From a bacterium (GTDB taxonomy: Bacteria; Patescibacteriota; Minisyncoccia; Phycocordibacterales; VMGT01): a stretch of DNA of 64,000 nucleotides. The notes beneath the pieces are model-generated. The model saw nothing but the letters and a program-made list of their open reading frames with translations, did no database searches and was not told the origin of the DNA. The position numbers were made by a program, and so were the translations under genes. Of this stretch, positions 6,647 through 61,998 are shown piece by piece. Position 1 is the first letter of the stretch. Each line of letters begins with the position of its first letter. The stretch spans positions 4,301 through 68,300 of the forward strand of contig JAUYPI010000008.1 of the NCBI GenBank assembly GCA_030697645.1, given 5' to 3'.

Positions 6647-6682
6647 TTTGCAATAACCATGCGACCGCATTGTTATTGCAAA
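6647..6682. repeat. 36-nt conserved palindrome TTTGCAATAAC-catGCGACCGCat-TGTTATTGCAAA (copy 1 of 3)
   Basis: 11-bp inverted arms around a conserved GCGACCGC loop. Near-identical copies at 35845-35880 and 61963-61998. Confidence 0.8.
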
Positions 6683-6696
6683 TCTCTTAAAACCAC

Positions 6697-7143
6697 ATGG
6701 CGCAACATTACACCTGTCCTGCCGTCGTTTTTCTCTGTATTGATTGGCGTCTCCATCCGGACGCCGATAATTATTTTCGCGAGAAATTCGGGAGCTTTGA
6801 TCCGCCGACGACCGCGGGCGGCATCAAAGATTTTTTTGCCGAGGACGGAGGCGAAGGCTACCTTGTGAGCCAGCTCGTAAAGTCAATCCTGCTCCACGAC
6901 CCGGAGGAGATCGTGCTCACGATCCACACGGACTGCGGCGCTTATGGCGGCTCCAAGGCATTCGACTCGCGCGAGGATGAGCTTGCGCACCATCGCCGTG
7001 AGCTTGCGCGCACCGCGGCGCTCATTCTAGAGAAGTACCCGGCGAAGCACATCTCAACGTACATCCTCGACCTCGCCCCAGCCGAGAGTGGCTGGCACAC
7101 CAGGGCGATTCCGGTTACGACGGAGATGCCCGCATCCATTTAG
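6697..7143 (+). CDS. beta-carbonic-anhydrase-like protein
   Basis: CIDWR and HTDCGAYGG match the beta-carbonic-anhydrase zinc-ligand motifs (CxDxR ... HxxCG). Only 148 aa, so shorter than typical. Confidence 0.5.
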   Translation: MAQHYTCPAVVFLCIDWRLHPDADNYFREKFGSFDPPTTAGGIKDFFAEDGGEGYLVSQLVKSILLHDPEEIVLTIHTDCGAYGGSKAFDSREDELAHHRRELARTAALILEKYPAKHISTYILDLAPAESGWHTRAIPVTTEMPASI

Positions 7144-7270
7144 CACGAGAGTGTTAGCAGCTTCTCTTTGATTCAGTTATACCGTCGCAGTCTTCGCTCT
7201 CGCGGACACCACGCGGTTTGGCATGAAAACGATTACGACGTAGTAGTCCGTCCGTCATGCCGCAGAGCTT

Positions 7271-7330
7271 GCTTGGCGGTTCGTGATTTTGGAAATTGTC
7301 TTCCAAATTGGAGCTTTGGAACTTGGAAAT
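7271..7330. repeat. TTGGAAATT-word short palindromic element (family B)
   Basis: GATTTTGGAAATTGTCTTCCAAATTGGAGCTTTGGAACTTGGAAATTCG, immediately upstream of scpB. Confidence 0.6.
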
Positions 7331-7344
7331 TCGACTTTTGCCCC

Positions 7345-7887
7345 ATGCCTTTTCTCGAAACACACATTGAAGCCATACTATTTTACGTTACCGAACCCAT
7401 GTCGGTCGGCGAGTTAGCATGCCTGTTTGCATGTACGACTGCGGAGATAGAAATAGCGCTCACGGCGCTCGATGCCGCGCTTGCGGAGCGTGGAGTGCGG
7501 TTGGTGCGAATCGGCGAGAGCGTCGAGCTCCGCGCCGCGAGAGAGGCTGCGCCGCTCATTGAGAAACTCCGGCAGGACGAACTCTCGCGCGAGCTCTCGC
7601 GCGCTTCGCTTGAAACGCTCGCGGTCGTACTCTACCAGGGCCCGGTGACGCGATCCGAGATCGAGTATATCCGCGGCGTGCAGTCGCAGAGCTCAATCCG
7701 GTTGCTCGCGGGCCGCGGGCTCATTCAAAAAATATCGGAGTATGGGAGCAAACGCGGCACCTTCTATCGCGCGACCACCGAGGCGCTGGCGCATGTTGGG
7801 TTGAGTAGGGTAGAGGAGTTGCCCGACTACGAGAAGACGCAGGCAGTATTAAAGCAAAACGGGCGTGAAGAAGTGCAGGCATTTTAA
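7345..7887 (+). CDS. scpB: segregation and condensation protein B
   Basis: A winged-helix pair typical of ScpB (EAILFYVTEPMSVGELA ... ETLAVVLYQGPVTRSEIEYIRGV). Confidence 0.8.
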   Translation: MPFLETHIEAILFYVTEPMSVGELACLFACTTAEIEIALTALDAALAERGVRLVRIGESVELRAAREAAPLIEKLRQDELSRELSRASLETLAVVLYQGPVTRSEIEYIRGVQSQSSIRLLAGRGLIQKISEYGSKRGTFYRATTEALAHVGLSRVEELPDYEKTQAVLKQNGREEVQAF

Positions 7888-7895
7888 ATTCGACA

Positions 7896-8903
7896 TTGCG
7901 TCTCATTGAGATGCCACAGTATACTGGCGCTATGCGTAAAAGCCTTGCCCAACTCAATCTTCCGCGCTACTGCAGCGAGCTCGGTGTGCCGCTTGCGTCC
8001 TGCCCGCCGTTTCTTTTTATCATCATGGGCGTCGTGGTTATCGGCGCGATACTCGGTACGTACGCGGTGGCGCAGCGGTACGCAGAACCCGAGATTGCGG
8101 TGCTCATCATGCTTGCGCTCGCCGCGTTTCTGTTTGTCGTCGGGTACCTTATCATTGGCGCGTTTGAAAAATTGGCCGATTCGCGAGCGCGCGAGCGTCG
8201 TCAGGCCACCGAACTTCTCACGCTGAAGGATCAATTTGTGTTCCTCGCTGCCCACGAGCTCCGCGCACCGGCAACGGCAATCAAATGGGCGGTTGAATCC
8301 CTCGAGACCAACACACCAGAACTGGTCTCCAAAAATAAAGAGGAAATCCGACTGATTGTGCAAAATACGATGCGCCTCTTGGGCCTCGTGCATGATATTC
8401 TCGAGACTGCGCGGCTCGAGAGTCAGGCGCTGCGCATTTCTCTCCAGCCGACGCAACTCGGTGATATTATAGAGCAGGCGACCTCTTCAGTGCGTAATCT
8501 TGCTCAGGCACATGGAGTTACCGTTGTCTCCCGGTTGGAGGGGAATGTACCGCGTGTCAGTGCGGACCCCCTGCGACTTGGCGCGGTGTTCACCAATCTT
8601 CTTTCGAACGCGATTAAGTTTAGCGAACGCGGCAGCGAGGTTGAGATTACGGCGCTCACGAGTGAGAAGACCGTCGCCGTGGACGTCGTTGACCACGGGG
8701 TGGGTATCGCGAAGGACGACCAACCACACATTTTTGAAAAATTTTGGCATGGCGTCGGAACGATCGTATCGGTGGAACACAGCGGCCTTGGCCTTTTTAT
8801 CACGAAACAGCTCGTCCAACTTATGGGGGGTTCGATACGATTCGCCTCGGAGCAGGGCGAAGGTTCGACGTTCACCGTTGAGCTCAAGCGCGCGGAGGGG
8901 TGA
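7896..8903 (+). CDS. sensor histidine kinase (2 TM, HisKA + HATPase_c)
   Basis: H-box AAHELRAP, then N/G1/G2 boxes (LLSNAIKFS, DHGVGI, GLGLFITKQLVQLMGG). No response regulator is adjacent. Confidence 0.85.
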   Translation: MRLIEMPQYTGAMRKSLAQLNLPRYCSELGVPLASCPPFLFIIMGVVVIGAILGTYAVAQRYAEPEIAVLIMLALAAFLFVVGYLIIGAFEKLADSRARERRQATELLTLKDQFVFLAAHELRAPATAIKWAVESLETNTPELVSKNKEEIRLIVQNTMRLLGLVHDILETARLESQALRISLQPTQLGDIIEQATSSVRNLAQAHGVTVVSRLEGNVPRVSADPLRLGAVFTNLLSNAIKFSERGSEVEITALTSEKTVAVDVVDHGVGIAKDDQPHIFEKFWHGVGTIVSVEHSGLGLFITKQLVQLMGGSIRFASEQGEGSTFTVELKRAEG

Positions 8904-8904
8904 G

Positions 8905-8940: not shown

Positions 8941-8943
8941 GCG

Positions 8944-10905: not shown

Positions 10906-10988
10906 AGAGCCCGTTTAAGAGACCGCATTATGCCGTGAGTTCAATCGCGAGTTCAATTCGCAGCACTCCTCTCTTACTGCCGAATCCA

Positions 10989-11028
10989 TCGTCATAATAA
11001 AAATGCGGCCGCATTTTTATTATGACGG
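10989..11028. terminator. perfect 17-bp palindromic hairpin CGTCATAATAAAAATGCGGCCGCATTTTTATTATGACG
   Basis: Lies in the convergent intergenic region and could terminate either strand. Confidence 0.5.
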
Positions 11029-11109
11029 CGTAAAAACATATTTTGCCCGAGTGCCCGAATGTCAGAGGCAATCATGAGTAAAGTATTAAAAGCAATCATG
11101 AGCAAAATA

Positions 11110-14925: not shown

Positions 14926-15030
14926 AAATTTTCAATTATCAATTTACAATTTTCAATCAATTTTCAATGACACAATTTTCAAACACGACGTCGTCGTTTT
15001 GAAAATTAGAAATTGAAAATTGGTAATTGT
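14926..15030. repeat. family A palindromic element with ACACGACGTCGTCGTTTT core
   Basis: TAAATTTTCAATTATCAATTTACAATTTTCAATCAATTTTCAATGACACAATTTTCAAACACGACGTCGTCGTTTTGAAAATTAGAAATTGAAAATTGGTAATTG. Confidence 0.8.
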
Positions 15031-16655: not shown

Positions 16656-16658
16656 CGT

Positions 16659-16793
16659 AAATTTCCAATTTTCAATTTTGCAATTTTCAATCAATTTTCA
16701 ATGGATCAATGATTCAATGACGGACGCCGTCGCGTTTGAAAATTGCGTCATTGAAAATTCATTGGAAATTGAAAATTGTACATTGAAAATTTT
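16659..16793. repeat. family A palindromic element with GACGGACGCCGTCGCG core
   Basis: AATTTCCAATTTTCAATTTTGCAATTTTCAATCAATTTTCAATGGATCAATGATTCAATGACGGACGCCGTCGCGTTTGAAAATTGCGTCATTGAAAATTCATTGGAAATTGAAAATTGTACATTGAAAATTTT. Confidence 0.8.
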
Positions 16794-16801
16794 ACACTCC
16801 C

Positions 16802-18757: not shown

Positions 18758-18788
18758 CAACAGATTTGGAAAGATGGGTTGAAGGGTA

Positions 18789-18917
18789 AAATTTTCAATG
18801 TACAATTTTCAATTTTCAATCAATTTTGCAATGACACAATTTTCAAACACGACGTCGTCCGTCACTCAGTCATTGACACGTTGAAAATTGATTGAAAATT
18901 GCAAAATTGAAAATTTT
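18789..18917. repeat. family A palindromic element with ACACGACGTCGTCCGTCA core
   Basis: AAATTTTCAATGTACAATTTTCAATTTTCAATCAATTTTGCAATGACACAATTTTCAAACACGACGTCGTCCGTCACTCAGTCATTGACACGTTGAAAATTGATTGAAAATTGCAAAATTGAAAATTTTT. Confidence 0.8.
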
Positions 18918-23068: not shown

Positions 23069-23077
23069 AAGCGAAAA

Positions 23078-23168
23078 GTGTATCTCGTATTTTGTAGCTC
23101 GTATCTTGTATAGTTTGTATAAAACTCCTCATACGAAATATAAGATACACAATACAAAATACAAGGCA
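23078..23168. repeat. ATACAAAATACAAG-word palindromic element (family E)
   Basis: Left arm GTATCTCGTATTTTGTAGCTCGTATCTTGTATAGTTTGTAT, right arm ATACGAAATATAAGATACACAATACAAAATACAAGG. A second copy lies at 34338-34470. Confidence 0.75.
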
Positions 23169-23172
23169 CACT

Positions 23173-25946: not shown

Positions 25947-27698
25947 ATGTCCACTACGACCGAACAAATCAAAGAGCGACTTTCGATAGCGGATCTCATC
26001 AGCGGCTATGTGAAGCTTGAGCGCGCCGGGGCGAACTTCAAGGCGCGTTGCCCGTTCCACAATGAGAAAACTCCTTCGTTTTTTGTCTCGCCGTCGCGCA
26101 ACACCTATTATTGCTTTGGGTGCGGAAAGTCAGGCGACGTCTTTACATTCGTCCAGGAATTTGACGGCCTCGATTTCCGCGGCGCGCTGAAGATGCTCGC
26201 CGAGCGCACGGGCGTGGTCCTGGTGGACGAACCGCGTGAGAGCGCGGACGAACGCGCGCGGCTCTTTGCCGCGCTCGAGAGTGCGTGCGTATTTTTTGAG
26301 CAGGGGCTCGGAAGTGCGCCGGAGGCTCGGGAGTACCTCCTTGGACGCGGCCTCACAGAGGCATCTATTACGCACTGGCGCATCGGCTTTGTGAAAGAAG
26401 GCTGGAGCACGCTCCGCGACGAGCTCGCGCTGCAGGGCTTTCGCGAGCGTGAGCTCGAGGGCGCGGGGCTCATCAAGCGCGGGGAGCGTAGTTTTTATGA
26501 CCGCTTCCGCAGCCGGATTATGTTTCCGATATCGGATAGCGCCGGGCGAGTCGTTGCGTTCTCCGGCAGGATTTTCGGCCAAGCGGGCCAGGAGGGTGAT
26601 GCGGCAAAGTACCTCAACAGTCCCGAGACCGAACTCTTTCACAAATCATCTCTCTTGTATGGATTTGATAAGGCAAAACATACGATTCGTACGCTCCGCT
26701 GTGCTATCGTTGTTGAAGGCCAGATGGACTTAATCCTCTCGCACCAGGCGGGGTTTACGAATACCGTTGCGCTCTCGGGAACGGCGCTCACCGACGTGCA
26801 GTGCAAGCTCCTGAAACGCCTGACGGACAACATGATCATCGCGCTTGACGCGGACAGTGCGGGTATTGCTGCAGCGGGCCGCTCCGCTACCATAGCACTC
26901 GGGCTCGGGATGGACGTGAAGGTGGCCCGGCTCCCCGAGGGAAAGGACCCAGCCGATCTCATCAAAGAGAGCCGCGAGGCGTGGAAGAGCGCGATCCGCT
27001 CCGCGATGCACGTCGTCGAGTTTTACCTTACTGTCTTGGAGCAGAGGCATGCGACAGACCGCCGCGCTCTCCGTCGCGAGGCAGCGCGAGTAGTGATACC
27101 GTTTCTTGCTGCGATGTCTGGTGCCATTGATCGTGCGCATTTCATCTCGCTCGTCGCCGCGCGGCTTGCTCTCCCTGAGAGCGCGATCATGGAAGAGGTA
27201 GTGAAGTACCGCGAGACGGCGCGTCGGATTCCGCCGAGTGCCGAGGAGGCGGGAGGAGCAGCGGCAGATGCCCGTGTGGCTGCGGAGTCGGGCAGTACCG
27301 CAGCACCTACTGAGCACGAGCAGCTCCTGCGGCGGCTCGTTGGCATCTATTATTGGATTGCGGATGACGTGGCGCTTGCCGCGCTCGTCCCGGAGTTCGC
27401 TCGCGCGTTTGTTACTGCCCTCGGCGGCGATCGCGAGTTTCGCGAGACAGCGGTGCGTTTTAGCGAGAATCGTGATACGCTTATTTTTGAAGCCGAGCGC
27501 GCGCTCGGTGAGCATCGGGAGCGGCTCGCCGAAGAAAGCGTATCGCTGTTGCGGCGATTTCAGGCCGCGATACTTCTCGAACGCTACGAGACGGTGATCG
27601 CCGAAGTGCGCGCGGCGGAGCTCTCAGGGGACAACGAAGCGCTCACAGAGGCGATGGCTGCGTGCGCGGAGATATCGAAGGCGATGGCGGCGCTCTGA
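25947..27698 (+). CDS. dnaG: DNA primase
   Basis: CHC2 zinc finger (CPFHNEKTPSFFVSPSRNTYYCFGCGKSGD) and a TOPRIM domain (VVEGQMDLI ... ALDADSAG). Confidence 0.9.
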   Translation: MSTTTEQIKERLSIADLISGYVKLERAGANFKARCPFHNEKTPSFFVSPSRNTYYCFGCGKSGDVFTFVQEFDGLDFRGALKMLAERTGVVLVDEPRESADERARLFAALESACVFFEQGLGSAPEAREYLLGRGLTEASITHWRIGFVKEGWSTLRDELALQGFRERELEGAGLIKRGERSFYDRFRSRIMFPISDSAGRVVAFSGRIFGQAGQEGDAAKYLNSPETELFHKSSLLYGFDKAKHTIRTLRCAIVVEGQMDLILSHQAGFTNTVALSGTALTDVQCKLLKRLTDNMIIALDADSAGIAAAGRSATIALGLGMDVKVARLPEGKDPADLIKESREAWKSAIRSAMHVVEFYLTVLEQRHATDRRALRREAARVVIPFLAAMSGAIDRAHFISLVAARLALPESAIMEEVVKYRETARRIPPSAEEAGGAAADARVAAESGSTAAPTEHEQLLRRLVGIYYWIADDVALAALVPEFARAFVTALGGDREFRETAVRFSENRDTLIFEAERALGEHRERLAEESVSLLRRFQAAILLERYETVIAEVRAAELSGDNEALTEAMAACAEISKAMAAL

Positions 27699-27778
27699 AG
27701 CTGTTAGCTGATAGCTTTTAGCTTTTAGCACGACGGCGTAGCCTCTCAAAAGCTATAAGCTAACAGCTAAAAGCTTAA
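27699..27778. repeat. family C palindromic element with CACGACGGCGTAG core, between dnaG and rpoD
   Basis: GAAGCTGTTAGCTGATAGCTTTTAGCTTTTAGCACGACGGCGTAGCCTCTCAAAAGCTATAAGCTAACAGCTAAAAGCTTAACA. Confidence 0.8.
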
Positions 27779-29190: not shown

Positions 29191-29949
29191 GTGCATGGCA
29201 CAAAGTGCACGGTGCGTGGTACGAGACGAGGACGGCTGTGCATAGCGGTAAGACAAACGGATTATTTTTTGTACGATATACCGGTTGACCTATTACGACA
29301 CTCTTGTTATCATTATGTCGTGGGGGCCATTCCAGAAAACAAAACCGCTCTGCTCAAGAAGCTGTACTACGAAAAGAAATTCAGTGCTCGAAAGATTGCA
29401 GAGTCTTTCGGCGTATCTTTGGATGCCGTATATTACTTTATGCGGCATCATAAGCTTGCGCGGCGTAGTTTTTCTGAGGAGAATAGATTACGATTCCTGC
29501 GCAAACAGCCATCGTTTACTCTTGCGAGGGGACTATCGAAACGAGAAAGACAACTGAAACTCATCGGGGTCATGCTCTATTGGTGTGAGGGGTATAAAAC
29601 GGGCAAGAGCTCTACCGTTGACTTTGTGAATAGTGACCCGTCGATGGTAAAAATCTTTACTGAGTTTTTAAGAACAGTGTGTGGTATCAATGAGAACAAA
29701 CTGCGCGCGTATCTCTATTACTATTCGAACCAAGACGCCCGTGAGCTTATAAAATTTTGGAGCGCAGTGACGCGCATTCCCCCGAGTCAATTCACCAGGC
29801 CATACATGAGAGAAAGCCTTCATGTCACCCCAAAGCACAAAATGCCCCATGGTCTTGTGCATATCCGCTATTGTGATAAGAAATTATTGCTTCAAATCAT
29901 GGAGTGGATTGAGCAGTATAAGATGGCACAAGAGAGTTTGCGTCGGTAG
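29191..29949 (+). CDS. hypothetical HTH-containing protein in a low-GC patch (possibly homing-endonuclease-like or a mobile-element remnant)
   Basis: Much lower GC than neighbours. A predicted helix-turn-helix (KKFSARKIAESFGVSLDAVYYF). The 3' end overlaps the tRNA-Tyr-like sequence. The start is uncertain (next Met is at residue 84). Confidence 0.3.
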   Translation: MHGTKCTVRGTRRGRLCIAVRQTDYFLYDIPVDLLRHSCYHYVVGAIPENKTALLKKLYYEKKFSARKIAESFGVSLDAVYYFMRHHKLARRSFSEENRLRFLRKQPSFTLARGLSKRERQLKLIGVMLYWCEGYKTGKSSTVDFVNSDPSMVKIFTEFLRTVCGINENKLRAYLYYYSNQDARELIKFWSAVTRIPPSQFTRPYMRESLHVTPKHKMPHGLVHIRYCDKKLLLQIMEWIEQYKMAQESLRR

Positions 29950-30027
29950 TCCCGTAGGGGGCGGGAGCGGACTGTAAATCCGTCGTCTTCAATGGCCCCG
30001 TGAGTTCGACTCTCACCCGACGCACCA
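29940..30027 (+). tRNA. tRNA-Tyr(GUA)-like, with a long variable arm and encoded CCA. The 5' third is non-canonical.
   Basis: Anticodon loop CUGUAAA in GCGGA-CTGTAAA-TCCGT. Perfect T-arm GTGAG-TTCGACT-CTCAC. Acceptor GCGTCGG/CCGACGC + A + CCA. The D-arm only folds as CCCG-TAGGGGG-CGGG with two extra nucleotides after the acceptor stem. Confidence 0.45.
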
Positions 30028-31078: not shown

Positions 31079-31816
31079 CTACTGCACCGATGCTTCCGTT
31101 TCGCTTCCCGCCTGCGGCACGTTTTGGAGAATGCTCTCGATGAGAGATCGAATGGAGCTGTAGGGCTGGGCACCTTCGAGGGGGAGCTGGTTACCGGCGA
31201 CGAGTACGACAGTGTGCGGGGTACCCGTGGCGCCGGCGCGCTCGGCATCCGCAACCATCGCCTCGACTTTCTTAGCATATTTGCCGCTCTTGAGGCAGCG
31301 CTCGAATTCGGCACGGTCGAGGCCGATATCTGCAGCGATTGTTGCGAGGAGTGCGGGGTCGAGTTTGTTGTCCGAGGGAGTGATAGTAAAGATGCGGTCG
31401 AGGTAGAGCCAGAATCCGCTGTTTCCCCCGAGCTCCGCCGCGCACTCCGTGGCCTCGGCTTCCTTGGGGGACTTGCTGTGGACCGCCGCGAGCGGAAAGT
31501 GGCGGTACACCCAGGCAACCGCGCCCATCTTCCCGTACTCATCCATGATGCGGTGGAGCGTGGCGTGATAGTTCTTGCAGAACGGGCATTCGGTATCCGA
31601 ATACTCAATGAGAATGATCGGCGCCTGCGGGTTCCCCAGAATATGGTCGTCGCCCGAAATCGGCGCAGCACCCTGCTGCTTTGGTGCTGTGGCGGACTCG
31701 CCGACATTCTCTACCACCGCCGCAGGACGAGAGGCTTTGTTCGAGAAGAAAACCGCGCCGCCGATAAAAACTCCGGCGAGAATAATGGCGGTGGGAATGG
31801 TGAGGGAGCGGGGCAT
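31079..31816 (-). CDS. dsbA: DsbA-family thiol:disulfide oxidoreductase with signal anchor
   Basis: CPFC active site (SDTECPFCKNYH) and an N-terminal TM/signal segment MPRSLTIPTAIILAGVFIGGAVFF. The plus-strand ORF 30902-31840 overlapping it is rejected. Confidence 0.8.
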   Translation of the reverse strand: MPRSLTIPTAIILAGVFIGGAVFFSNKASRPAAVVENVGESATAPKQQGAAPISGDDHILGNPQAPIILIEYSDTECPFCKNYHATLHRIMDEYGKMGAVAWVYRHFPLAAVHSKSPKEAEATECAAELGGNSGFWLYLDRIFTITPSDNKLDPALLATIAADIGLDRAEFERCLKSGKYAKKVEAMVADAERAGATGTPHTVVLVAGNQLPLEGAQPYSSIRSLIESILQNVPQAGSETEASVQ

Positions 31817-31825
31817 GGGAGAACG

Positions 31826-31903
31826 ACATTTGACATGTAACCTTTGACATTTGACGTCGCGTCGCCGGTCGTTCGAAGTCAAATGTCAATGGTCAAATGT
31901 TTA
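31826..31903. repeat. CATTTGACA-word palindromic element (family D) with GACGTCGCGTCGCC core
   Basis: CGACATTTGACATGTAACCTTTGACATTTGACGTCGCGTCGCCGGTCGTTCGAAGTCAAATGTCAATGGTCAAATGTT, between rpsU and dsbA. Confidence 0.8.
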
Positions 31904-31909
31904 TAGGCC

Positions 31910-32164
31910 TTATCCCCTCCTCCCCCCCTTTCTCTTCTTCGGCTCCGGCGTCTTGCCGAGTTTCGCCAGGCGTTCGCGCTCAATCTGCCGCGCGATGAGT
32001 GCAAGGCGACTGCGTTTTTTCGTGTGCTGAGACGCGTCTCGTTTATAGTGCTTGAGTGAGCGGGCGCGAGTGAGCACGCCTGACTCTTGGACGCGTTTAG
32101 AGAATCTCCGGAGCGCGGCGACGTTGTTTTCAGTCTCCGTTTTGGTGACTTCGACGTTGATCAT
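31910..32164 (-). CDS. rpsU: 30S ribosomal protein S21
   Basis: MINVEVTKTETENNVAALRRFSKRVQESGVLTRARSLKHYKR matches the S21 consensus (VxVxENE..ALRRFKR...G.L...R...YEKP), with a basic tail. Confidence 0.85.
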   Translation of the reverse strand: MINVEVTKTETENNVAALRRFSKRVQESGVLTRARSLKHYKRDASQHTKKRSRLALIARQIERERLAKLGKTPEPKKRKGGRRG

Positions 32165-32235
32165 GATAGTGAGACTATACCACGGGGATAACCATGATAC
32201 AAACCTATAGCGATGTGCGCAATATCAAGGTGTGC

Positions 32236-32333
32236 AAGCTTTTAGCTTTTAGCTGATAGCTTTTAGCACGACGACGTAGCTTCTAAAAGCTAACAGCTAA
32301 AAGCTCGTCTGATTAAGTTAACAGCTAAAAGCT
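32236..32333. repeat. family C palindromic element with CACGACGACGTAG core
   Basis: GCTTTTAGCTTTTAGCTGATAGCTTTTAGCACGACGACGTAGCTTCTAAAAGCTAACAGCTAAAAGCTCGTCTGATTAAGTTAACAGCTAAAAGCTG. Confidence 0.8.
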
Positions 32334-34337: not shown

Positions 34338-34470
34338 AACGTAAAAATCAAAAATCAAACTGTGTATTTTGTAGCTCGTATTTTGTATCTTGTGTCGAAA
34401 ATGTAACCTCATTCACAGAGTTAGAGTGCGTGCAAAAATACAAGATACAAAATACCAAATACAAGGTACC
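34338..34470. repeat. family E palindromic element (ATACAAAATACAAG words)
   Basis: CTGTGTATTTTGTAGCTCGTATTTTGTATCTTGTGTCG ... GCAAAAATACAAGATACAAAATACCAAATACAAGG. Preceded by AAAACGTAAAAATCAAAAATCAAAC. Confidence 0.75.
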
Positions 34471-35736: not shown

Positions 35737-35844
35737 AGGATTTGAAAATGACCGTCTTCTAATGATCGACCTTGCTATACTTATACCATACTCATTGCCT
35801 CGCGCGTGCCCTCCGTTATAGGTCATAAAAAACAGAAAAAGATA

Positions 35845-35880
35845 TTTGCAATAACTCTGCGACCGCATTGTTATTGCAAA
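35845..35880. repeat. 36-nt conserved palindrome (copy 2): TTTGCAATAAC-tctGCGACCGCat-TGTTATTGCAAA
   Basis: Same arms and loop as copies 1 and 3, flanked by AAAAGATA on the left and TTTTCG on the right. Confidence 0.8.
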
Positions 35881-35973
35881 TTTTCGTTCAGTTCGTTTCT
35901 CGGTGAGTGTGTCGGTTCTCTTTTTGGACAGGCCCGCTTCTCGTTTTTGATATTGGCGTATATACTGCAGCGT

Positions 35974-36855
35974 ATGGACGAGACAAAACAAGGCACCGAC
36001 CGCCTCAAAGAACTTGAGGCTCTGATGCAGGCGAGCGATTTTTGGGCTGACAAGGAGCGAGCGCAGACGCTGATCCGTGAATATCAGGCACTAAAAGATA
36101 CCGCAGCCGGTGTCGGCGTGTATGAGAGCGGCGATGCGATCATGACCATTTTTGCCGGAGCCGGGGGTGACGATGCCGAGGATTTTACGCGTATGCTCTC
36201 GGAAATGTACGGGAAATATATCGTCGCACACGGCTGGAGCACTCGAGAGCTCCACGCGCACTCGAGTGAGTCCGGCGGCTACCGCAATATCACGACGGAG
36301 ATTGCGGGGCGCGGGGCGTATGGGACCCTTAAGCACGAGAGCGGGGTACACCGCCTCGTGCGGATCTCGCCCTTTAATGCGTCAAAGAAACGGCAGACGT
36401 CGTTTGCGCTTGTCGAGGTCGTGCCGAAGTTTGAGAAGGTGGGACCTGTGGATATCGCGGAGAGCGACCTTCGGGTCGAGTTCGCGCGATCAGGGGGCGC
36501 AGGCGGGCAGAATGTGAATAAGCGCGAAACTGCCGTGCGTATCGTGCACCTGCCGACCAATATCGCGGTACATGTGTCCTCCGAGCGCAGCCAGCAGCAG
36601 AACAGGGAGAAGGCACTGGCGCTCCTCCGCGGAAAGCTCTATCATAGGGAAGAGGAGGCGCGACACGCGCGCGAGCGCGGCCTCTCGACTGCCGCGACGA
36701 TCTCTGCCGAATGGGGCAACCAGATCCGCTCATACGTGCTGCACCCGTACCGAATGGTGAAAGACCACCGCACCGGGGTCGAAACAAGCGACATCGAGCG
36801 CGTGCTTGAGCGCGGGGAGATCGATGAGTTCATCGAGGCGGAGAAAAATGTGTAG
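35974..36855 (+). CDS. prfB: peptide chain release factor 2, N-terminally short form
   Basis: GGQ motif (SGGAGGQNVNK), RF2-specific SPF tripeptide (RISPFNASKKRQTSFA), and DFWADKERAQ aligning to E. coli DVWNEPERAQ. No upstream CTT-TGA-C frameshift site is seen, and the in-frame upstream translation is not RF-like. Confidence 0.8.
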   Translation: MDETKQGTDRLKELEALMQASDFWADKERAQTLIREYQALKDTAAGVGVYESGDAIMTIFAGAGGDDAEDFTRMLSEMYGKYIVAHGWSTRELHAHSSESGGYRNITTEIAGRGAYGTLKHESGVHRLVRISPFNASKKRQTSFALVEVVPKFEKVGPVDIAESDLRVEFARSGGAGGQNVNKRETAVRIVHLPTNIAVHVSSERSQQQNREKALALLRGKLYHREEEARHARERGLSTAATISAEWGNQIRSYVLHPYRMVKDHRTGVETSDIERVLERGEIDEFIEAEKNV

Positions 36856-37227: not shown

Positions 37228-37236
37228 ACTACTGAA

Positions 37237-37305
37237 TTGGAAGTGAGTAGTTCGTTGTTGGCAGTTGCGTCAGCATGATTTACTTCGACAAAGTTTCAAA
37301 AATAT
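37237..37305 (+). repeat. direct repeat, copy 1 (duplicated ftsE 5' region)
   Basis: TTGGAAGTGAGTAGTTCGTTGTTGGCAGTTGCGTCAGCATGATTTACTTCGACAAAGTTTCAAAAATAT is about 94 % identical to 38033-38100. It includes the ftsE start codon and its first 10 codons ([10 protein letters not shown]). Confidence 0.85.
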
Positions 37306-38009: not shown

Positions 38010-38032
38010 ACGAGGGTCGGAAGTTCGTCATT

Positions 38033-38100
38033 GAAAGTGAGTAATTCGTTGTTGGCAGTTGCGTACGCATGATTTACTTCGACAAAGTTTCAAAAATATA
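38033..38100 (+). repeat. direct repeat, copy 2 (native ftsE 5' region)
   Basis: Matches 37237-37305 and here continues into full-length ftsE. Confidence 0.85.
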
Positions 38101-38752
38101 CAATGGCGGCACGGTGGCGCTCGAGGACGTCACGCTCACGGTGGACTCCAAGGAGTTTGTCTCGATCGTTGGCCACAGCGGGGCCGGGAAGACGACGCTT
38201 CTCAAGATGCTGCTTGCCGAGGACTTTCCGACAGCGGGCGCGGTGTATTTTGAGTCTACGGACATCCACTCGCTTCGCCGGAGAGCGATCAGCCGCCTGC
38301 GGCGGCGCATCGGCATGATTTTTCAGGATTTTCGGCTCCTTCCCGCCCGTACCGCCTATGAGAATGTCGCGTTTGCGATGGAGGCCGCAGGCCGCAGTGA
38401 TGAGGAAATCCAGTCCGACGTGCCGTATGCGCTTGGTCTCGTTGATCTCGAGGAACACATGTGGAACTTCCCCCATGAGCTCTCCGGGGGCGAGAAGCAG
38501 CGCGTGGCGATCGCGCGTGCGATCGTGAACCAGCCGGACATTTTGGTCGCCGACGAGCCGACGGGGAACCTCGATCCGGTCAATACCTATGATATCGTGC
38601 AGATTTTGAAAAAAATCAACGGCCTCGGCACAACCGTGCTGCTCACGACGCACAACACCGGCGTCGTGGAATCCCTCAAACGTCGCGTCATTACGATGGA
38701 GCGCGGCAGGGTGGTCGGAGACGAGGCGCATGGACACTATAATAACCACTGA
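38069..38752 (+). CDS. ftsE: cell-division ABC transporter ATP-binding protein FtsE
   Basis: [14 protein letters not shown], Walker [13 protein letters not shown] signature [14 protein letters not shown], Walker B ILVADEPT. Followed by ftsX. Confidence 0.9.
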
Positions 38753-38803
38753 GCTTTTAGCATGGACGGCGACGGCGAAGCTTCTAAAAGCTAACAGCTC
38801 GCA
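38752..38803. repeat. family C short palindromic element between ftsE and ftsX
   Basis: TGAGCTTTTAGCATGGACGGCGACGGCGAAGCTTCTAAAAGCTAACAGCTCGC. Confidence 0.7.
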
Positions 38804-39730: not shown

Positions 39731-39882
39731 AAATTCGAAATACGAATATCAAATCCGAGCCGAACATTTGACATGTAACATTTGACATTTGACCGCGTCG
39801 CCTCGTCTGTCAAATGTCAATGGTCAATTGTCACATGTTCTGTTCGTGCTTCGATATTCGGATTTAGGCATATTCGGATTTC
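39731..39882. repeat. family D palindromic element (CATTTGACA words) with CGCGTCGCCTCGTC core, nested in outer arms
   Basis: Outer arms GAAATACGAATATCAAATCCGAG / CTTCGATATTCGGATTTAGGCATATTCGGATTTC. Inner AACATTTGACATGTAACATTTGACATTTGACCGCGTCGCCTCGTCTGTCAAATGTCAATGGTCAATTGTCACATGTT. Confidence 0.8.
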
Positions 39883-42267: not shown

Positions 42268-42341
42268 TGCCGGGTCGTCTAAAGGTAGGACAATTGCCTC
42301 TGGAGCAATTTATCTTGGTTCGAGTCCAAGCCCGGCAGCCA
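42268..42341 (+). tRNA. tRNA-Gln(CUG)
   Basis: Cloverleaf: acceptor TGCCGGG/CCCGGCA, D-arm GTC-TAAAGGTAG-GAC, anticodon arm ATTGC-CTCTGGA-GCAAT (anticodon CUG), T-arm CTTGG-TTCGAGT-CCAAG, discriminator G, then CCA. Confidence 0.75.
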
Positions 42342-42373: not shown

Positions 42374-42789
42374 GGCTTGCTATAGAGCCAGATTTTGTAG
42401 GTTCGAACCATGGCTGTTGGGCCTAAACCGCGATACGTGACTCTTTACTGAGGCAATGCACATATAGGATTTTTTTGAAAAATAGCGGTTCGAAAGCGTA
42501 GAGACGGTGGTAGACGAGAAACCATTGACTTAGGTGTGCGGTTATGTATACTAGAACGAGGTTAACAACTACATATGGTGTATCCAGAGTACGGAGATGC
42601 GAAGGGTAATGGCCCAATGCTCCGTCCGCAACCTGTTCGCCGAGTGGCGAAAAAGGTGCGAACTCCATCCTTCAGACTTCCTGTTTGAAGGAAAGATACG
42701 TTCTAAAATTGGATGTCTGGATACACCGCCTTCGTGGGCGGTGTATTTGTTTGGTAGAAGGTCCTTGACAATACTATAAGGAACAACGC

Positions 42790-44208
42790 ATGGTACAAAA
42801 ACATAGTACGGCCGAACCAAGCATCCTTCAGTTGCTTGGAATCGTTGGATACGACTCAGTTGAGTCGGTAGTCATCGCCGCGCTCGCGACGGAAGCTCCG
42901 CTGCTCATTATCGGCCCACACGGGACTGCAAAATCATTGCTGCTGAATTTGCTCGCGGAGGCACTTCGTCTTGAACATCGCCATTATAATGCAGCGATGA
43001 TCAATTTCGACGACCTCATCGGGTTTCCGTATCCGAACGAAAGCAAGACTGGCCTTGAGTATATACCAACGAAAGGCTCTATATGGGGAGTAGAGTCTGT
43101 GTTTATTGACGAAATATCACGCACTCGCGTTGATATGCAAAACCGGCTGTTCCCAATCATCCACGAGAAGATGATCCAAGGCATTCCGCTTTCGGGTCTT
43201 CGTTTCAGATGGGCGGCCATGAACCCTCCACGAAAGGACGAGGAAGAAGAGCGCGGGTGGACGTACGAAGGCTCGGAGCCACTTGATGTGGCGTTGGCGG
43301 ACCGATTTCCGTTTATTCTTTCACTTCCGTCTTTTGCAGCGTTTTCCGAGAGCCACAAGCTCGCGGTCATTCGCGGCCAGCCGGAAGTGGAAGCTGCAAA
43401 AGTTGGCACTCTGCTCTCTCAGCGAATTAACCTCGCGAGAGTTGCGGCAGGGGAAGTAAGGAAAACTTTGAGCGAGAGTATCGGCTCCTATGTCCTTGCC
43501 ATTCATGCGCTTCTTGAAAAGATGAAACGGCCAATATCACCGAGACGCGCCCGCATGCTCCACGATGCCATTGTTGGGGTTATCGCGGCGGAATCGGTTG
43601 CCGGTCGCCACGATTCAAAGTCCGCGACATTCATGGCGCTTACGAACGCCTTACCGCATCCCGCGTACGGCGAGGTTATAGATGCGTTAGAATTACTCAC
43701 GGCCCATAACCAGGCGTGGAAATTAGCCGAAATTCCTGCAACGGATCCAAGGCGACTCATCTTTGCCGAACCCAATCCGGTGAAGCGGGTGGCGTTGGGA
43801 TTATCACTCTCGATTCCGGATTTGGATATGTCGATCCTAGTGCAGGACGCGTACGCCTCGCTTGAGGCAGTTGAGCGCATCTGCTTTGGGGTTGCGCTCT
43901 ATCCTATAGTGAGTACCACGAAAAATCTGACAGCCGTTGCGTTCGAGGCTCTAGCCGACGAATGGTTCGAGGTTGAGAATCAATCGGCGCGCAGACATCA
44001 AGTGGCGAGCGGGTCGAAACGGCATCGGCAGTGGCAAAAACTGGTCGATTGGATCAGTGAGCAGACGACGAACACCTTAGAAGAAAGTGTGAAAGTTAAT
44101 ATCGCACTTGTCCTCTTTGAGCGGGAAGTCGAGTTTGAACCGGAAATCGTCGCACTGACCTTCAACAAGTTTAACGAGTTATTCCCCTGGAGAAAGGAAA
44201 ACGTATGA
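42790..44208 (+). CDS. MoxR-like AAA+ ATPase with C-terminal extension
   Basis: Walker A LLIIGPHGTAKS, Walker B VFIDEISR, sensor and arginine-finger region. Lower GC than the core genome. The stop overlaps the next start (ATGA). Confidence 0.8.
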   Translation: MVQKHSTAEPSILQLLGIVGYDSVESVVIAALATEAPLLIIGPHGTAKSLLLNLLAEALRLEHRHYNAAMINFDDLIGFPYPNESKTGLEYIPTKGSIWGVESVFIDEISRTRVDMQNRLFPIIHEKMIQGIPLSGLRFRWAAMNPPRKDEEEERGWTYEGSEPLDVALADRFPFILSLPSFAAFSESHKLAVIRGQPEVEAAKVGTLLSQRINLARVAAGEVRKTLSESIGSYVLAIHALLEKMKRPISPRRARMLHDAIVGVIAAESVAGRHDSKSATFMALTNALPHPAYGEVIDALELLTAHNQAWKLAEIPATDPRRLIFAEPNPVKRVALGLSLSIPDLDMSILVQDAYASLEAVERICFGVALYPIVSTTKNLTAVAFEALADEWFEVENQSARRHQVASGSKRHRQWQKLVDWISEQTTNTLEESVKVNIALVLFEREVEFEPEIVALTFNKFNELFPWRKENV

Positions 44209-56719: not shown

Positions 56720-56883
56720 GAATTTCCAATTTCCAAATTCACAATTTCCAAATAATTTCCAAAACTTCAAGTTCCAATTTCCAAACACGACGCGGCTACT
56801 CGTAATGGTAGTGGTGTTTGGGATTTAATTTTTTGGAATTTGAGATTTGTTTGGAAATTGGTTACTTGGAAATTGGAAATTTA
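56720..56883. repeat. AATTTCCAA-word palindromic element (family B) with ACACGACGCGGCTACTCG core
   Basis: AATTTCCAATTTCCAAATTCACAATTTCCAAATAATTTCCAAAACTTCAAGTTCCAATTTCCAAACACGACGCGG ... TTTGGAAATTGGTTACTTGGAAATTGGAAATTT. Confidence 0.8.
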
Positions 56884-58601: not shown

Positions 58602-58639
58602 GTTGAGTATGCGTTACTCAAAAATGCCGCAGCGTTATA

Positions 58640-58915
58640 GTATGCCGACTGCAATGAAACGTATGTATAATCACAAGCGAGCGGAAAGCGAAAAGAGGAC
58701 TTTTACCAAAGATGAGAAAAGATGCACTGTTCGGAAAGGTGCGAAAAGCACGGGGAACAATCCTTCACGCACTGGCAAAACAGAAGGAATGTGAAATAAT
58801 CGAAGGACACGTGATGCCCGATCATGTCCACGTGCTCACTGAAATGACGTTATGGTGCCGATGGGAGGAATCGGACCTCCTTCTGAGCTTTATGAGGGCT
58901 CTGCTTTACCATTAA
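58640..58915 (+). pseudogene. degenerate IS200/IS605-family (Y1/HuH) transposase TnpA fragment, possibly a remnant REP-associated tyrosine transposase (RAYT)
   Basis: KECEIIEGHVMPDHVHVL matches the IS200 TnpA HuH motif (ieghvmpDHVHLL). The ORF is short, and downstream motifs and the catalytic Tyr are absent. An AT-rich non-coding flank follows. Confidence 0.5.
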
Positions 58916-59486
58916 GCTACATCGGCGTCTTCCATTCTTCATCGCTTCTATAAGCCCTACTATGCGATATCGTAGGTATGTGTTTCGTCGTATTCGCAAA
59001 GATAGTATACCCTAGAAGTAGTTCCGACTTTCCCCCAATCACGCTATACTGTATAGGCATTATCAGCCTTAATGGCTAGGGTTGGTATAAAAGCGTACAC
59101 CGTACAAACTTAATAGTCTGTGGCTTGACACGAATGGACATGTGAATGTGGAATGTGAATGGGGTCAGACAGCACTTCAGTATGTCTATGCTATAATATA
59201 CTGCTTAACAAAAATATCTATACAAAAAAACTGCCTGAATATTGAGTTTACTCTTGTAGACTGATTTTGTATACCAACCGTCGCCAAAAATCCCGTCCGT
59301 CCCCGCAAGAACACGGCGGAATGGTGTGGGAGGAATTCCGCCGCGCCCGAGCGTTCCGCCGGAGCGCCTGCCCGCCGAAGCCTCGGCGCAGGCGGGAAGC
59401 GGAGGCGGTCAGTTCCCTTCAAAAAATGTTCGAGCAGAGTTGTATAATTCTACCATCTCACGAAAAATATCGCTCCAATCAAGTGT

Positions 59487-59999: not shown

Positions 60000-60109
60000 G
60001 CGTCAATAGTAAAAAAAAGGTTATTCTGAAATGCTCGTGCCTGACCGGCGCCCCATATTTCCGCCGCCCTCGGCTCGATCGTAGGAAGCGTGGGGGGCTA
60101 CAGTTGTGT

Positions 60110-60150
60110 CGGCAGCGTGTTTTTATACCCGCTGCCGATTTTGTTTTTTG
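60110..60150 (+). terminator. terminator hairpin TCGGCAGCG-tgtttttatac-CGCTGCCGA + TTTTGTTTTTTG
   Basis: 9-bp stem plus a T-rich tail after the DUF192 gene. Confidence 0.65.
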
Positions 60151-60192
60151 TGCTACACTCACTGTAGAAAAAAACTATCAATGGAGGACACG

Positions 60193-60534
60193 ATGATGTC
60201 GACTTTGATCATTAACGGTTTTGAGTTTCCTGTCACTAATTACACGGTGACGTCACCGAGCGAGGTGCTCGTCAAACGGCTTGGTTTGGAGCGCGTTGAC
60301 CTCCATCGTGCCGAGATGCCTTTTGAAACGATGTTTGGAAAGTCACGGCCGGCTCTCCGCATGTTCATTTTTTATACACGATGCGTGGTACGCGCCGGTG
60401 AGAGAGTGTGGGCACCGTTTGCCGCATGGTGCTGGGGGTTGCCGGGGTTTGGTCTGAAGATTGGTGTTGTATACCACGGGGGCAACGATATAGTGCCGTA
60501 CCAGACGTTTTACCTCTGCGGCACTCTTGGTTGA
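60193..60534 (+). CDS. hypothetical protein
   Basis: 114 aa. A strong Shine-Dalgarno GGAGGA sits 4 nt upstream of the ATG, and an extended -10-like TGCTACACT lies upstream. Confidence 0.5.
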   Translation: MMSTLIINGFEFPVTNYTVTSPSEVLVKRLGLERVDLHRAEMPFETMFGKSRPALRMFIFYTRCVVRAGERVWAPFAAWCWGLPGFGLKIGVVYHGGNDIVPYQTFYLCGTLG

Positions 60535-60738
60535 ACAATGGCGATACGTCTTGGAAAGACGCTCTTTCGCATGAATGATGTGCAGAACCCCACGCTCAGC
60601 GTATTTACGCTCCTTGACCAAGACCGCCGTCCTCTTGGCGATGATATTGGCGTTGACGATACGCCGATCGAGTTTTTCTGTCGCCAGTATGGCAAGGGTG
60701 ATCGATTTTAGTACGCCGCAGAGTGAAGGAGGTACTTT

Positions 60739-60990
60739 ATGCCGAATGTTATGTACACGATCGAAGCGCCAGATGGTCAGCCGACAATGGCCGAGGTAGC
60801 GCAGCTGTTGCAAGTGCAAGAGTCTGATCTCGATTCGAGCTTTAGCGTCGTCCTCATCGACCCCAAGCGTGGCCTCTACACAGTGCGCATACGTGAGCAG
60901 TCGGGTGCCCATCCCTATACGACCGGCCCGCGGCTCAAAGGTCCATTTGCCGATCCTGGCATTGCCCATTTCGGACCGTTGCAGTCCTAG
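60739..60990 (+). CDS. hypothetical protein
   Basis: 83 aa. A strong Shine-Dalgarno AAGGAGG sits 7 nt upstream of the ATG, and a hairpin plus T7 terminator follows (61031-61064). Confidence 0.5.
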   Translation: MPNVMYTIEAPDGQPTMAEVAQLLQVQESDLDSSFSVVLIDPKRGLYTVRIREQSGAHPYTTGPRLKGPFADPGIAHFGPLQS

Positions 60991-61069
60991 GCGTTTAGTC
61001 CCGCGTACCGGGTTCCGCCGTCCAACCATTGGCGCCTCATTACGGATAGTGGGGCGCTTTTTTTGTATA

Positions 61070-61906
61070 ATGGAGCGCGTTATGAAGCCGGACCGCATCA
61101 GAGTGTTGCGTCGCGTTGTCTGGCGTTATTATCGTCGGGCGGGGCGGGATTTGCCGTGGCGACGGACAAGAAATCCGTACCGGATTTTGGTCTCCGAAGT
61201 GATGCTCCAACAGACGCAAGCTGAACGAGTGCTGTCGAAGTATCGCGAGTTTCTCCATCGCTTCCCGACTGTTCGTGCCCTTGCCGAGGCGTCGCTCTCC
61301 GAGGTACTTCGTGCCTGGTCCGGCCTCGGGTACAACCGCCGTGCGCTTTTCCTCAAGACAGCGGCGGAAATTATTCTGGCCGAGCATGGCGGCCGCGTGC
61401 CGCGGCGCTCTGCGGCGCTCGAGCGGCTTCCGGGCGTCGGCGCGTACACGGCGCGGGCGATCCTCTGTTTTGCGTTTGACGAGCCGACGGTGTTCCTCGA
61501 GACGAACATCCGCACGGTTTTTATCCACCATTTTTTTGCTGAGCGCATCAGGCGGGGAAGTGGAGTGAGCGACCGTGAGCTCCTACCGCTCATTGGAGCG
61601 TCGCTTGATCGCCGCGATCCTCGCGAGTGGTACTTCGCGCTCATGGACTATGGCGCACATCTCAAACAAACGGTCGGGAACGTCTCGCGCGCGAGCACAC
61701 AATACGCGCGGCAGAGCGCGTTTCGCGGCTCCGCGCGCGAAGCGCGCGGCCGCACGCTGAAGCTTCTTGTCGTTCGCGCGATGTCGGAGACTGAGCTCGT
61801 GCGTCTTTCGACGCTGCCGCGCGATCGGATCCGTCGCGCGCTCGCCTCGCTCGCGCGCGACGGACTCGTCGAAAAGACGGGGAAGCGCTACGCACTCACG
61901 GCGTAG
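61070..61906 (+). CDS. HhH-GPD base-excision glycosylase (MutY/Nth family), apparently lacking the 4Fe-4S cysteine cluster
   Basis: DLPWRRTRNPYRILVSEVMLQQTQAERV matches the MutY N-terminus. HhH-GPD motif LPGVGAYTARAI. No C-x6-C-x2-C-x5-C motif is present. Alternative start at 61082. Confidence 0.75.
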   Translation: MERVMKPDRIRVLRRVVWRYYRRAGRDLPWRRTRNPYRILVSEVMLQQTQAERVLSKYREFLHRFPTVRALAEASLSEVLRAWSGLGYNRRALFLKTAAEIILAEHGGRVPRRSAALERLPGVGAYTARAILCFAFDEPTVFLETNIRTVFIHHFFAERIRRGSGVSDRELLPLIGASLDRRDPREWYFALMDYGAHLKQTVGNVSRASTQYARQSAFRGSAREARGRTLKLLVVRAMSETELVRLSTLPRDRIRRALASLARDGLVEKTGKRYALTA

Positions 61907-61962
61907 CGTCGTCTGACTGCTTCCTTTTAATGAAACTGATGATGAAACTGAAAAATAAAAGA

Positions 61963-61998
61963 TTTGCAATAACTATGCGATCGCATTATTATTGCAAA
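61963..61998. repeat. 36-nt conserved palindrome (copy 3): TTTGCAATAAC-tatGCGATCGCat-TATTATTGCAAA
   Basis: Same architecture, with a single substitution in the loop (GCGATCGC) and in the right arm. Confidence 0.8.

Follow-up and report, generated by a model that had tools for sequence, protein, structure and literature searches.

A conserved intergenic palindrome in a Patescibacteria genome as the possible core of a lineage-specific REP/BIME-like repeat family

Introduction

Patescibacteria genomes are tiny and gene-dense, and persistent non-coding repeats in such genomes are unexpected and hardly described. What, in a genome of this kind, is a palindrome that recurs almost unchanged at three distant intergenic sites within 64,000 nucleotides (nt)? 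The stretch that raises this question, called the window throughout, covers positions 4,301 to 68,300 of contig JAUYPI010000008.1 (assembly GCA_030697645.1; GTDB lineage Bacteria; Patescibacteriota; Minisyncoccia; Phycocordibacterales; VMGT01). An earlier note, made from its letters alone, had pointed out the three copies and had favored sequence-specific recognition, as a palindromic protein-binding site or a structured RNA motif, over a generic hairpin terminator.

We find that the object is best described as an interspersed repeat family rather than a gene-specific site, a reading absent from the earlier note. More specifically, we put at roughly one in two the probability that the palindrome is the core of a lineage-specific interspersed extragenic repeat similar to repetitive extragenic palindromic (REP) elements and bacterial interspersed mosaic elements (BIMEs), with a hairpin that is recognized sequence-specifically by a trans-acting protein. 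In the literature on the sequence and on repeats of the Candidate Phyla Radiation (CPR), we found no description of REP-like elements in Patescibacteria.

Results

A 38-nt palindromic unit with copies beyond the window

A pattern search of the window that allowed up to three mismatches returned the palindrome at 6647-6682, 35845-35880 and 61963-61998 only, in each case on both strands because the motif is palindromic. These are exactly the three positions of the earlier note, and 100 dinucleotide-preserving shuffles of the sequence yielded no match. Conservation reaches one base further at either side, which gives a 38-nt unit at 6646-6683, 35844-35881 and 61962-61999. The unit can be written as ATTTGCAATAAY-N3-GCGRYCGC-N3-RTTATTGCAAAT, with three boxes, namely the two 12-nt arms and the center.

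The unit is also found outside the window. A strict form of the pattern, with exact arms demanded, was run on metagenome contigs and detected it in 17 contig stretches (designated by L-numbers) from five Joint Genome Institute (JGI) samples. Collapsing near-identical contigs (L124 = L125 = L133; L127 = L128) leaves 14 distinct loci with a GC content of 49-58%, among which L130 holds a second motif copy with one mismatch and L121 an additional decayed one. Together with the window copies, the metagenome loci make 17 independent sites, or 18 copies when the second L130 copy is included. The possibility, raised in the earlier note, that only three copies exist is thereby set aside by 14 further loci. 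The same applies to the suspicion of a fragment of a larger insertion sequence (IS), since the motif has no counterpart in any known IS and gave no match in collections of plasmids, phages and viral contigs.

A covariance model built from the 18 copies assigns each of them 50-77 bits, and nothing reaches 20 bits in the more distant Parcubacteria sequence, about 230 kb in all, that was retrieved via homologues of purB, MutY and a Y1 transposase-like gene. Only two weak relatives emerge from the model: a second palindrome family described below scores 33.5 bits (L130 9781-9838), and a palindrome at window 10984-11033 scores 31 bits. The window belongs to a metagenome-assembled genome, and its purB product is 100% identical to the protein MDZ4285002.1. 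By purB, the closest named relatives of the window genome are Patescibacteria/Parcubacteria, that is Kaiser-, Sung- and Yonathbacteria. Contigs with purB orthologues of 82-88% identity (L139-L148) have no motif copy, and their synteny is altered so that they offer no clean empty site; contigs with 73-74% identical MutY orthologues (L154, L155) have no copy after mutY, and their synteny differs such that insertion and loss are indistinguishable. An Rfam scan of the window at the gathering threshold gave no match for the palindrome, and at E values up to 10 it gave only chance-level microRNA and small nucleolar RNA matches. A loose pattern, TTGCAATAA-N10-22-TTATTGCAA, run on a genome collection returned 120 chance matches in unrelated taxa, none with the full motif. 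Among the relatives sampled, the repeat family is confined to one narrow Parcubacteria clade. Its density in the window, three copies in 64 kb or one per ~21 kb, would extrapolate to about 40-50 copies per Mb.

The window copies and their genes

The three window copies stand next to unrelated genes. Copy 1 (6646-6683, minus strand, 66.8 bits), which reads ATTTGCAATAAC CAT GCGACCGC ATT GTTATTGCAAAT and has its tail at the left, lies 49 nt past the stop codon of atpC, an assignment backed by PF02823, and 15 nt ahead of an open reading frame (ORF) at 6697. This ORF has beta-carbonic-anhydrase-like CxDxR/HxxC motifs that were seen by eye, and a Pfam search with it gave no match. Copy 2 (35844-35881, plus strand, 64.0 bits) occupies the divergent gap between an SCO4226-like gene on the minus strand and a release-factor gene with PCRF and RF-1 domains that starts at 35974 on the plus strand. 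Copy 3 (61962-61999, plus strand, 76.8 bits) has the center GCGATCGC and an orthologous copy in L121; it follows a MutY-like gene by 57 nt and precedes purB by 151 nt. These contexts bear out the earlier note, with the carbonic-anhydrase-like assignment resting on motifs seen by eye, and so do the read-through pseudo-peptides it had warned of, which appear in the ORF lists as FAITLRPHCYCKF, MRPHCYCKS and FAITMRSHYYCKF.

A small protein or peptide gene across the palindrome is ruled out, as conservation is absent outside the repeat. The long ORF that runs from 35806 through copy 2 is an artefact of ORF extension. The release-factor gene next to it (35974-36855) is itself short, with 293 amino acids (aa) and a PCRF match whose first profile position is 97; a frameshift segment ahead of it was looked for by eye of the sequence and is not evident.

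An intergenic element with no positional bias

With ORFs scored by a codon-usage model and flanking genes annotated with Pfam, all 17 independent sites are intergenic. Thirteen fall between tandem genes, two in convergent gaps (recR/alaS in L133; L136) and two in divergent ones (window copy 2; the P-type ATPase/YqeY gap in L132), compared with a window background of tandem, convergent and divergent gaps of about 46:7:8. When a copy is oriented by its one-sided tail, the tail points to the downstream gene at six sites and back to the upstream gene at six, two sites are convergent and the rest are ambiguous. The neighboring genes are unrelated housekeeping genes, among them atpC, atpE/atpF, the gene for RF2, purB, mutY, recR, alaS, secF, a transketolase gene, a DEAD helicase, relA/spoT, glycosyltransferases, glutaredoxin/tRNA and aspS/pepA.

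Enrichment upstream of particular functional classes, which the earlier note had put forward for checking, is thus not what these sites display. Gap types at background proportions, random orientation and unrelated neighbors together speak against three roles: operator of a regulon, promoter and dedicated terminator. Such placement would fit either tolerated insertion in any intergenic DNA or a function at the DNA level that is independent of transcription units.

A hairpin with a conserved mismatch and tip

On either strand, the unit can form a hairpin in which a 10-12-bp A/T-rich stem is followed by a mismatch, two A-T and then two G-C pairs, and a loop of 4 nt. The A/T-rich part includes the base of the stem, and the AT/AT pairs below the GCGAYCGC tip are set apart from the 10-11-bp arms by a T.T mismatch. 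The earlier note had taken GCGAYCGC for an 8-nt loop, whereas its outer G-C/C-G pairs close a loop of 4 nt. Nor is the hairpin weak, as had been argued from the A/T-rich stem: in a context of 71-73 nt, the RNA folds of the three window copies reach -20 to -23 kcal/mol (z -3.4 to -6.0), and as 44-nt single-stranded DNA the folds reach -11.4 to -13.3 kcal/mol (z -5 to -7). A simple scan for consensus terminators called none of the three window copies, and a promoter scan called only copy 3 (TTGCAA-17-TATTAT).

The informative positions among the 18 copies are those that the search pattern left unspecified. The flanking A and T are retained in 16-18 of the 18 copies and the GCG/CGC of the center is invariant, even though the search did not specify all of these positions; the two central bases are AC, AT or GT only. 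The N3 spacers vary without compensatory changes and for the most part do not pair. Of the 18 copies, 15 have no pair at 23-36, where T.T is the usual combination, nine have C.A at 22-37, and four to six have broken pairs at 24-35 and 25-34. By comparison, the outer flanks, which lie beyond the search pattern, stay paired where A-U has been exchanged for G-C. Covariation overall scores 0.116, compared with 0.085 in shuffles, and 14 of 500 shuffles reach this value. A mismatch and a tip that are kept, next to spacers that are free to vary, are consistent with recognition of a specific hairpin or of specific boxes and not with selection on stem stability alone.

Tails, modules and a second palindrome

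When all copies are set in one orientation, many share a one-sided tail, ATTTTTCAAYTCGTTCAGAAT, and the other side is often (A/G)AGAT; L130 has the tail at both sides. The modules attached to copy 1 (6599-6645, minus strand) comprise a degenerate tail, ttaacgaatagaa, at 6634-6645 and a further module, Y, at 6599-6633, which begins directly past the atpC stop codon and holds a perfect DnaA-box-like sequence, TTATCCACA, at 6620-6628. Module Y has the form ...ATGACATGCGTGGATAAAAA-GCGG-TTT-AGACA..., and the composite of Y, tail and core is present in four copies (window copy 1, L121, L135 and L123). Copy 2 has a degenerate tail at 35882-35899 (plus strand), tttcgttcagttcgtttc, recognizable by same-orientation comparison with the other copies. 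The tail of copy 3, TTTTCAACTCGTTCAGAAT, spans 62000-62018 (plus strand), and homology to L121 ends exactly at 62018; it is followed at 62019-62034 (plus strand) by module Z (ATAGACYTCTTGCATAA; here AGACCTCTTGCATAAC). L124/L125/L133 likewise have module Z after the core, and L127/L128 have a weaker version of it.

The second palindrome family, TTGTAAATAAY-N-TACGATCGTA-N-GTTATTTRCAA, has a CGATCG center and a design related to that of the studied motif. At three loci (L121 127-160, L122 6242-6275 and L130 9793-9826) a copy of this family is no more than 150 nt away from the core, and another is at L132 6142; the window has no copy of it. A covariance model scan found no doublets of the studied motif. 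With its core, modules and second palindrome, the mosaic make-up of these loci appears, by analogy, to resemble that of BIMEs.

An orthologous copy in a sister genome

L121 is orthologous to window 60141-62018, and the genes in this region have 78-84% nucleotide identity. Here the core and tail of copy 3 are identical at 55 of 56 positions, compared with about 84% identity in the flanking coding DNA. The copy after mutY is therefore older than the split of the two genomes, and it has been kept nearly unchanged. Past 62018, similarity is lost abruptly: the window continues with module Z and purB, and L121 continues from 263 with module Y and other DNA. Synteny is thus lost precisely where the tail ends (window 62018 / L121 263), which suggests a rearrangement mediated by the repeat, and the element is likely to be a rearrangement hotspot because the break in the sister genome coincides with its edge.

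Two parts of the earlier argument can now be told apart. Conservation beyond the arms is upheld, as arms, GCGRYCGC center and AT flanks recur at 17 independent sites, and with it the case for sequence-specific recognition rather than a generic terminator, given the near-identical orthologue and the absence of terminator calls. The ideas of a weak hairpin and of placement by functional class find no support.

A Y1 transposase-like gene next to one copy

At one locus, the motif has a neighbor of particular interest with regard to REP systems. L130 9997-10689 encodes a 230-aa Y1_Tnp protein (PF01797, E 2.9e-15) in which an HxH motif and a tyrosine motif are present, and which scores 64.5 bits against the NCBIfam model NF047646, 'REP-associated tyrosine transposase' (RAYT), for which the curated cut-off is 80. 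Its start is 310 nt past the motif copy and 170 nt past the second-family palindrome. There is no Y1 gene in the window or at any of the other loci besides L130. In Parcubacteria, the family is widespread and unusually conserved, with 1763 matches at E <=1e-20 and 65-78% identity across Kaiser-, Taylor-, Sung- and Pacebacteria.

This Y1_Tnp/RAYT-like gene, of ~223 aa, is found Parcubacteria-wide and always with flanking inverted AAATGGGGATA[A/C]GTCC repeats. The flanking repeats are tandemly multiplied in L130 (9868-9950, 10700-10800), and extra inverted copies of them occur near the gene at L152 5310-5711 and L153 12375-12677. Many of the contigs that bear the gene are only about 1 kb long, as is expected if the repeats break assemblies. 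The Y1 gene may be a domesticated transposase with a repeat family of its own.

Other repeats and features of the window

The window genome is unusually rich in structured intergenic repeats. Hairpin family A consists of long hairpins whose arms are tandem 8-mers, (AATTTTCA)n, with a GC-rich tip, CACGACGTCGTCG / CGGACGCC. It is present at 2622-2756, 14926-15025, 16657-16795, 18783-18915 and 56721-56883, where the hairpins start about 0-30 nt from stop codons, and related copies occur in L129, L131, L132 and L137. Family B with AGCTTTTAGCT-type 7-mer arms, family C with ACATTTGAC arms and a GTATCTCGTATTTTGTA family are all located directly past genes; listed jointly, their sites are 4148-4232, 5986-6022, 27692-27776, 32230-32333 and 38752-38799; 31805-31928 and 39756-39846; and 23075-23172 and 34390-34470. 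With several such families right past stop codons, the genome can be called repeat-rich. A solitary palindrome, CGTCATAATAAAAATGCGGCCGCATTTTTATTATGACG, at 10989-11028 has a perfect 17-bp stem (-16.4 kcal/mol as DNA) and lies in a -|- intergenic region. It is akin to the studied motif by architecture only, in having AT-rich arms and a TGCGNNCGCA tip (GCGGCCGC in the model match at 10984-11033).

A non-coding block at 7169-7290, in the gap that separates the ORF at 6697-7143 from scpB, is 88-93% identical to L134 3105-3224 and L135 9927-9981, which sit in unrelated loci. Rfam gave no match to the block with E values up to 1, and Pfam gave none to a 69-aa minus-strand ORF that overlaps it; the block may be a further repeat or a small RNA that is as yet undescribed. 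An S-adenosylmethionine (SAM) riboswitch (RF00162) at 42577-42702 scores 46.9 bits, just above the gathering score, and lies upstream of a gene at 42790. The window further holds genes for tRNA-Gln (42268-42341), tRNA-Tyr (29940-30027) and tRNA-Met (58853-58926), and a 70-nt direct repeat (37236-37305 and 38030-38099, 94% identical) around a nucleotidyltransferase/HEPN pair (PF01909, PF05168).

Discussion

In regard to mechanism, the reading that we prefer, that of a REP/BIME-like extragenic repeat, would have the unit act in the form of a stem-loop, in either single-stranded DNA or RNA, whose T.T mismatch is conserved and whose tip is GC-clamped. This stem-loop would be recognized sequence-specifically by a trans-acting protein, and the leading candidate for such a protein would be a transposase- or nuclease-like enzyme, as in REP-RAYT systems. 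Recognition of the hairpin would explain the dispersal of the unit and its conservation alike. Where the unit is co-transcribed with an upstream gene, the hairpin may secondarily serve as a 3'-end or intercistronic structure.

A number of observations weigh against this reading. No pair of filled and empty sites was found among the compared loci, and the paralogous copies in the window differ among themselves, so that nothing indicates recent spread. The invariance of the arms among the metagenome copies is in part built in, since exact arms were a condition of the search. From mutY to the core, the intergenic DNA is itself ~88% identical to L121, with one 13-nt indel, and the excess conservation of the core therefore rests on few sites and one orthologous pair. 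With regard to an enzyme, Y1 homologues in five other contigs (L149-L153) are flanked by inverted AAATGGGGATA[A/C]GTCC repeats of their own, of the AAATGGGGATAMGTCC type and unrelated to the motif, and the motif is absent within 10 kb of the Y1 gene in those five contigs. The adjacency in L130 may be due to chance, at an estimated 3-7% or so for 34 neighboring genes; a REP-RAYT link is therefore a possibility and a lead, and the Y1 protein at most a putative cognate enzyme. Lastly, unlike REP elements, the aligned copies have no GTAG or CGTC, their flanks being (A/G)AGAT and ATTTTTCAAYTCGTTCA, and unlike REPINs, the inverted doublets formed by REP elements, all studied copies are single units.

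Several other explanations can be weighed with the same data. A factor-independent, possibly bidirectional terminator, or a hairpin that stabilizes mRNA 3' ends, with copies that are alike by mutual descent, would account for the stable fold and for the location of most copies 10-250 nt past a stop codon, as well as for the A-rich run before the core and the ATTTTT after it in many copies. Two copies in convergent gaps, recR/alaS (L133) and L136, are in keeping with it, and the other hairpin families of the window likewise lie directly past stop codons. We nevertheless regard this as a rather unlikely account. The stem base is AT-rich and the consensus scan makes no call, copy 1 lacks a T-run in the atpC direction, one copy lies within the atp operon between atpE and atpF, and two of 17 copies sit in divergent promoter regions (window copy 2, L132) where no transcript end is expected. 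Moreover, changes in the inner stem are uncompensated while unpaired and loop positions are kept, which is the opposite of what selection on structure only would produce. The inverted 10-12-bp arms, with their fixed 14-bp spacing and conserved center, might instead be the operator of a dimeric DNA-binding regulator that controls downstream genes, comparable to the controlling inverted repeat of chaperone expression (CIRCE), and the three window copies do all lie upstream of plus-strand genes, by 15, 93 and 151 nt. The lack of functional coherence among the neighbors, the two copies in convergent gaps and the directional consensus, with its T/T and C/A asymmetry and one-sided tail, make this very unlikely, and the motif is found neither ahead of purB in relatives whose purB is 82-88% identical nor after mutY in relatives whose MutY is 73-74% identical.

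Independence from transcription units would also be expected of a chromosomal site that acts at the DNA level, for replication, segregation or a nucleoid protein, for example as a DnaA-associated module. In three of 18 copies, a DnaA-box-like TGTGGATAA with at most one mismatch is found 20-50 nt past the tail, on the same side and in the same orientation; there are four such matches near copies where about one is expected, and of the eight perfect boxes in 208 kb, two are no more than 50 nt from a copy. These sites are at window 6620-6628, at about 9510-9535 in L132, where one perfect box and one with a single mismatch stand 13 nt apart, and at about 9600 in L135. They accompany only a minority of copies, however, the enrichment is weak (an estimated p of about 0.01) and stems in part from the one repeated module Y, and the three window copies display no orientation pattern with respect to GC skew, so that we give this explanation little chance. 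A sigma-70-type promoter within the palindrome (TTGCAA as -35, a 17-nt spacer and TATTAT as -10) is called by the scan in copy 3, on the plus strand and towards purB, and the A that makes TATTAT is the commoner base in the tail-downstream orientation (eight C/A versus one T/G copies). Copies 1 and 2 have TGTTAT, without the key A at -11, and are not called. With random orientation to the downstream gene and some copies in convergent gaps, a promoter is rejected on orientation, and we consider it extremely improbable overall. A bolder version of the preferred reading would make the palindrome, with its conserved mismatch, GC-clamped tip and directional tail, the recognition hairpin of a domesticated HUH/Y1 (RAYT-like) or other lineage-specific enzyme and, taken with the other hairpin repeat families of the genome, half of the first REP-RAYT-type pair described in the CPR, or would alternatively take the core-tail-DnaA-box modules for dispersed DnaA-related sites; we hold this to be distinctly unlikely.

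Our findings bear on several practical matters. As a conserved palindrome restricted to one clade, the unit could mark bins and type strains. It also causes breaks in assemblies and gives rise to spurious ORF calls, such as the ...ITLRPHCYCKF... read-throughs. If a cognate protein exists, the system offers a view of how partnerships between repeats and transposases last in reduced genomes; if the unit is merely a hairpin repeat, it is ordinary.

It is worth considering how the unit compares with known systems. Like the cyanobacterial highly iterated palindrome HIP1, copy 3 and several metagenome copies have GCGATCGC at their center, but the unit is 38 nt long rather than 8 nt and its center is often GCGACCGC. 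HIP1 is strongly over-represented across its host genomes, genes included, whereas the octamer GCGATCGC occurs four times in the 64 kb where 4.2 occurrences are expected, and a HIP1 or restriction-site reading was rejected on these counts. DNA uptake sequences (DUS), also called uptake signal sequences (USS), occur about once per kb, coding regions included. Given one copy per ~21 kb and none in coding DNA, the unit is no such sequence. Arrays of the TIGR type are tandem repeats with spacers of at least 8 nt (PMC12045711); these and CRISPR arrays are ruled out, as the copies are solitary, 26-29 kb apart, with variable parts of only 3 nt. Integron attC sites are ruled out as well, since the R''/R' boxes do not fit and the neighbors are housekeeping genes, and parS or dif sites are ruled out on copy number and arrangement.

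Closer parallels exist, each of them partial. With miniature inverted-repeat transposable elements (MITEs) such as Correia/NEMIS and the Rickettsia palindromic elements, the unit shares its small size, dispersed distribution, non-coding nature and inverted-repeat ends. Its arms could serve as terminal inverted repeats, with a flanking AT that is indistinguishable from the palindrome itself. Unlike MITEs, however, the unit is much shorter, has no detectable target-site duplication and no related full-length IS, and is never inside genes. CIRCE/HrcA operators likewise are inverted repeats with fixed spacing and arms of ~10 bp that could act in both DNA and mRNA, whereas the unit occurs at many more sites, is asymmetric in direction and lacks a coherent regulon. 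In the manner of intrinsic (bidirectional) terminators, it forms a hairpin between an A-run and a T-run past genes; in contrast to them, its sequence is conserved across loci and species, it has an AT-rich base and a kept mismatch, it also occurs in divergent promoter regions, and it has no GC-rich stem directly before a U-tract, with ATTTTT on one side in most copies.

REPIN-RAYT systems comprise closely spaced inverted doublets or BIME clusters, in tens to hundreds of copies per genome, and one copy of a RAYT (Y1/HUH) gene with these repeats on its flanks. REP elements are 20-40 bp long, extragenic and mostly downstream of ORFs (PMC3733652; REP properties also PMC5581495), and the palindromes have an unpaired GTAG or CGTC tag at one end (PMC3733652). 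Strict membership among REP-RAYT systems fails on the end tag and probably on the doublet arrangement. The unit further differs from REP elements in having AT-rich arms with a GC tip instead of a GC-rich stem, and in a density of about 1 per 20 kb; the sole nearby Y1 gene, unlike a RAYT gene, has unrelated flanking repeats of its own, and the host belongs to the Patescibacteria (CPR) and not to the Proteobacteria and other groups known as REP hosts. As with REP elements and BIMEs, on the other hand, the unit is a short imperfect palindrome of 38 nt, multi-copy, strictly extragenic, in either orientation and mostly downstream of ORFs, and it is lineage-specific and persists at an orthologous site. 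Like BIMEs, it is combined in mosaics with short modules and a palindrome of a second type, and its clade also has a RAYT-like Y1 gene.

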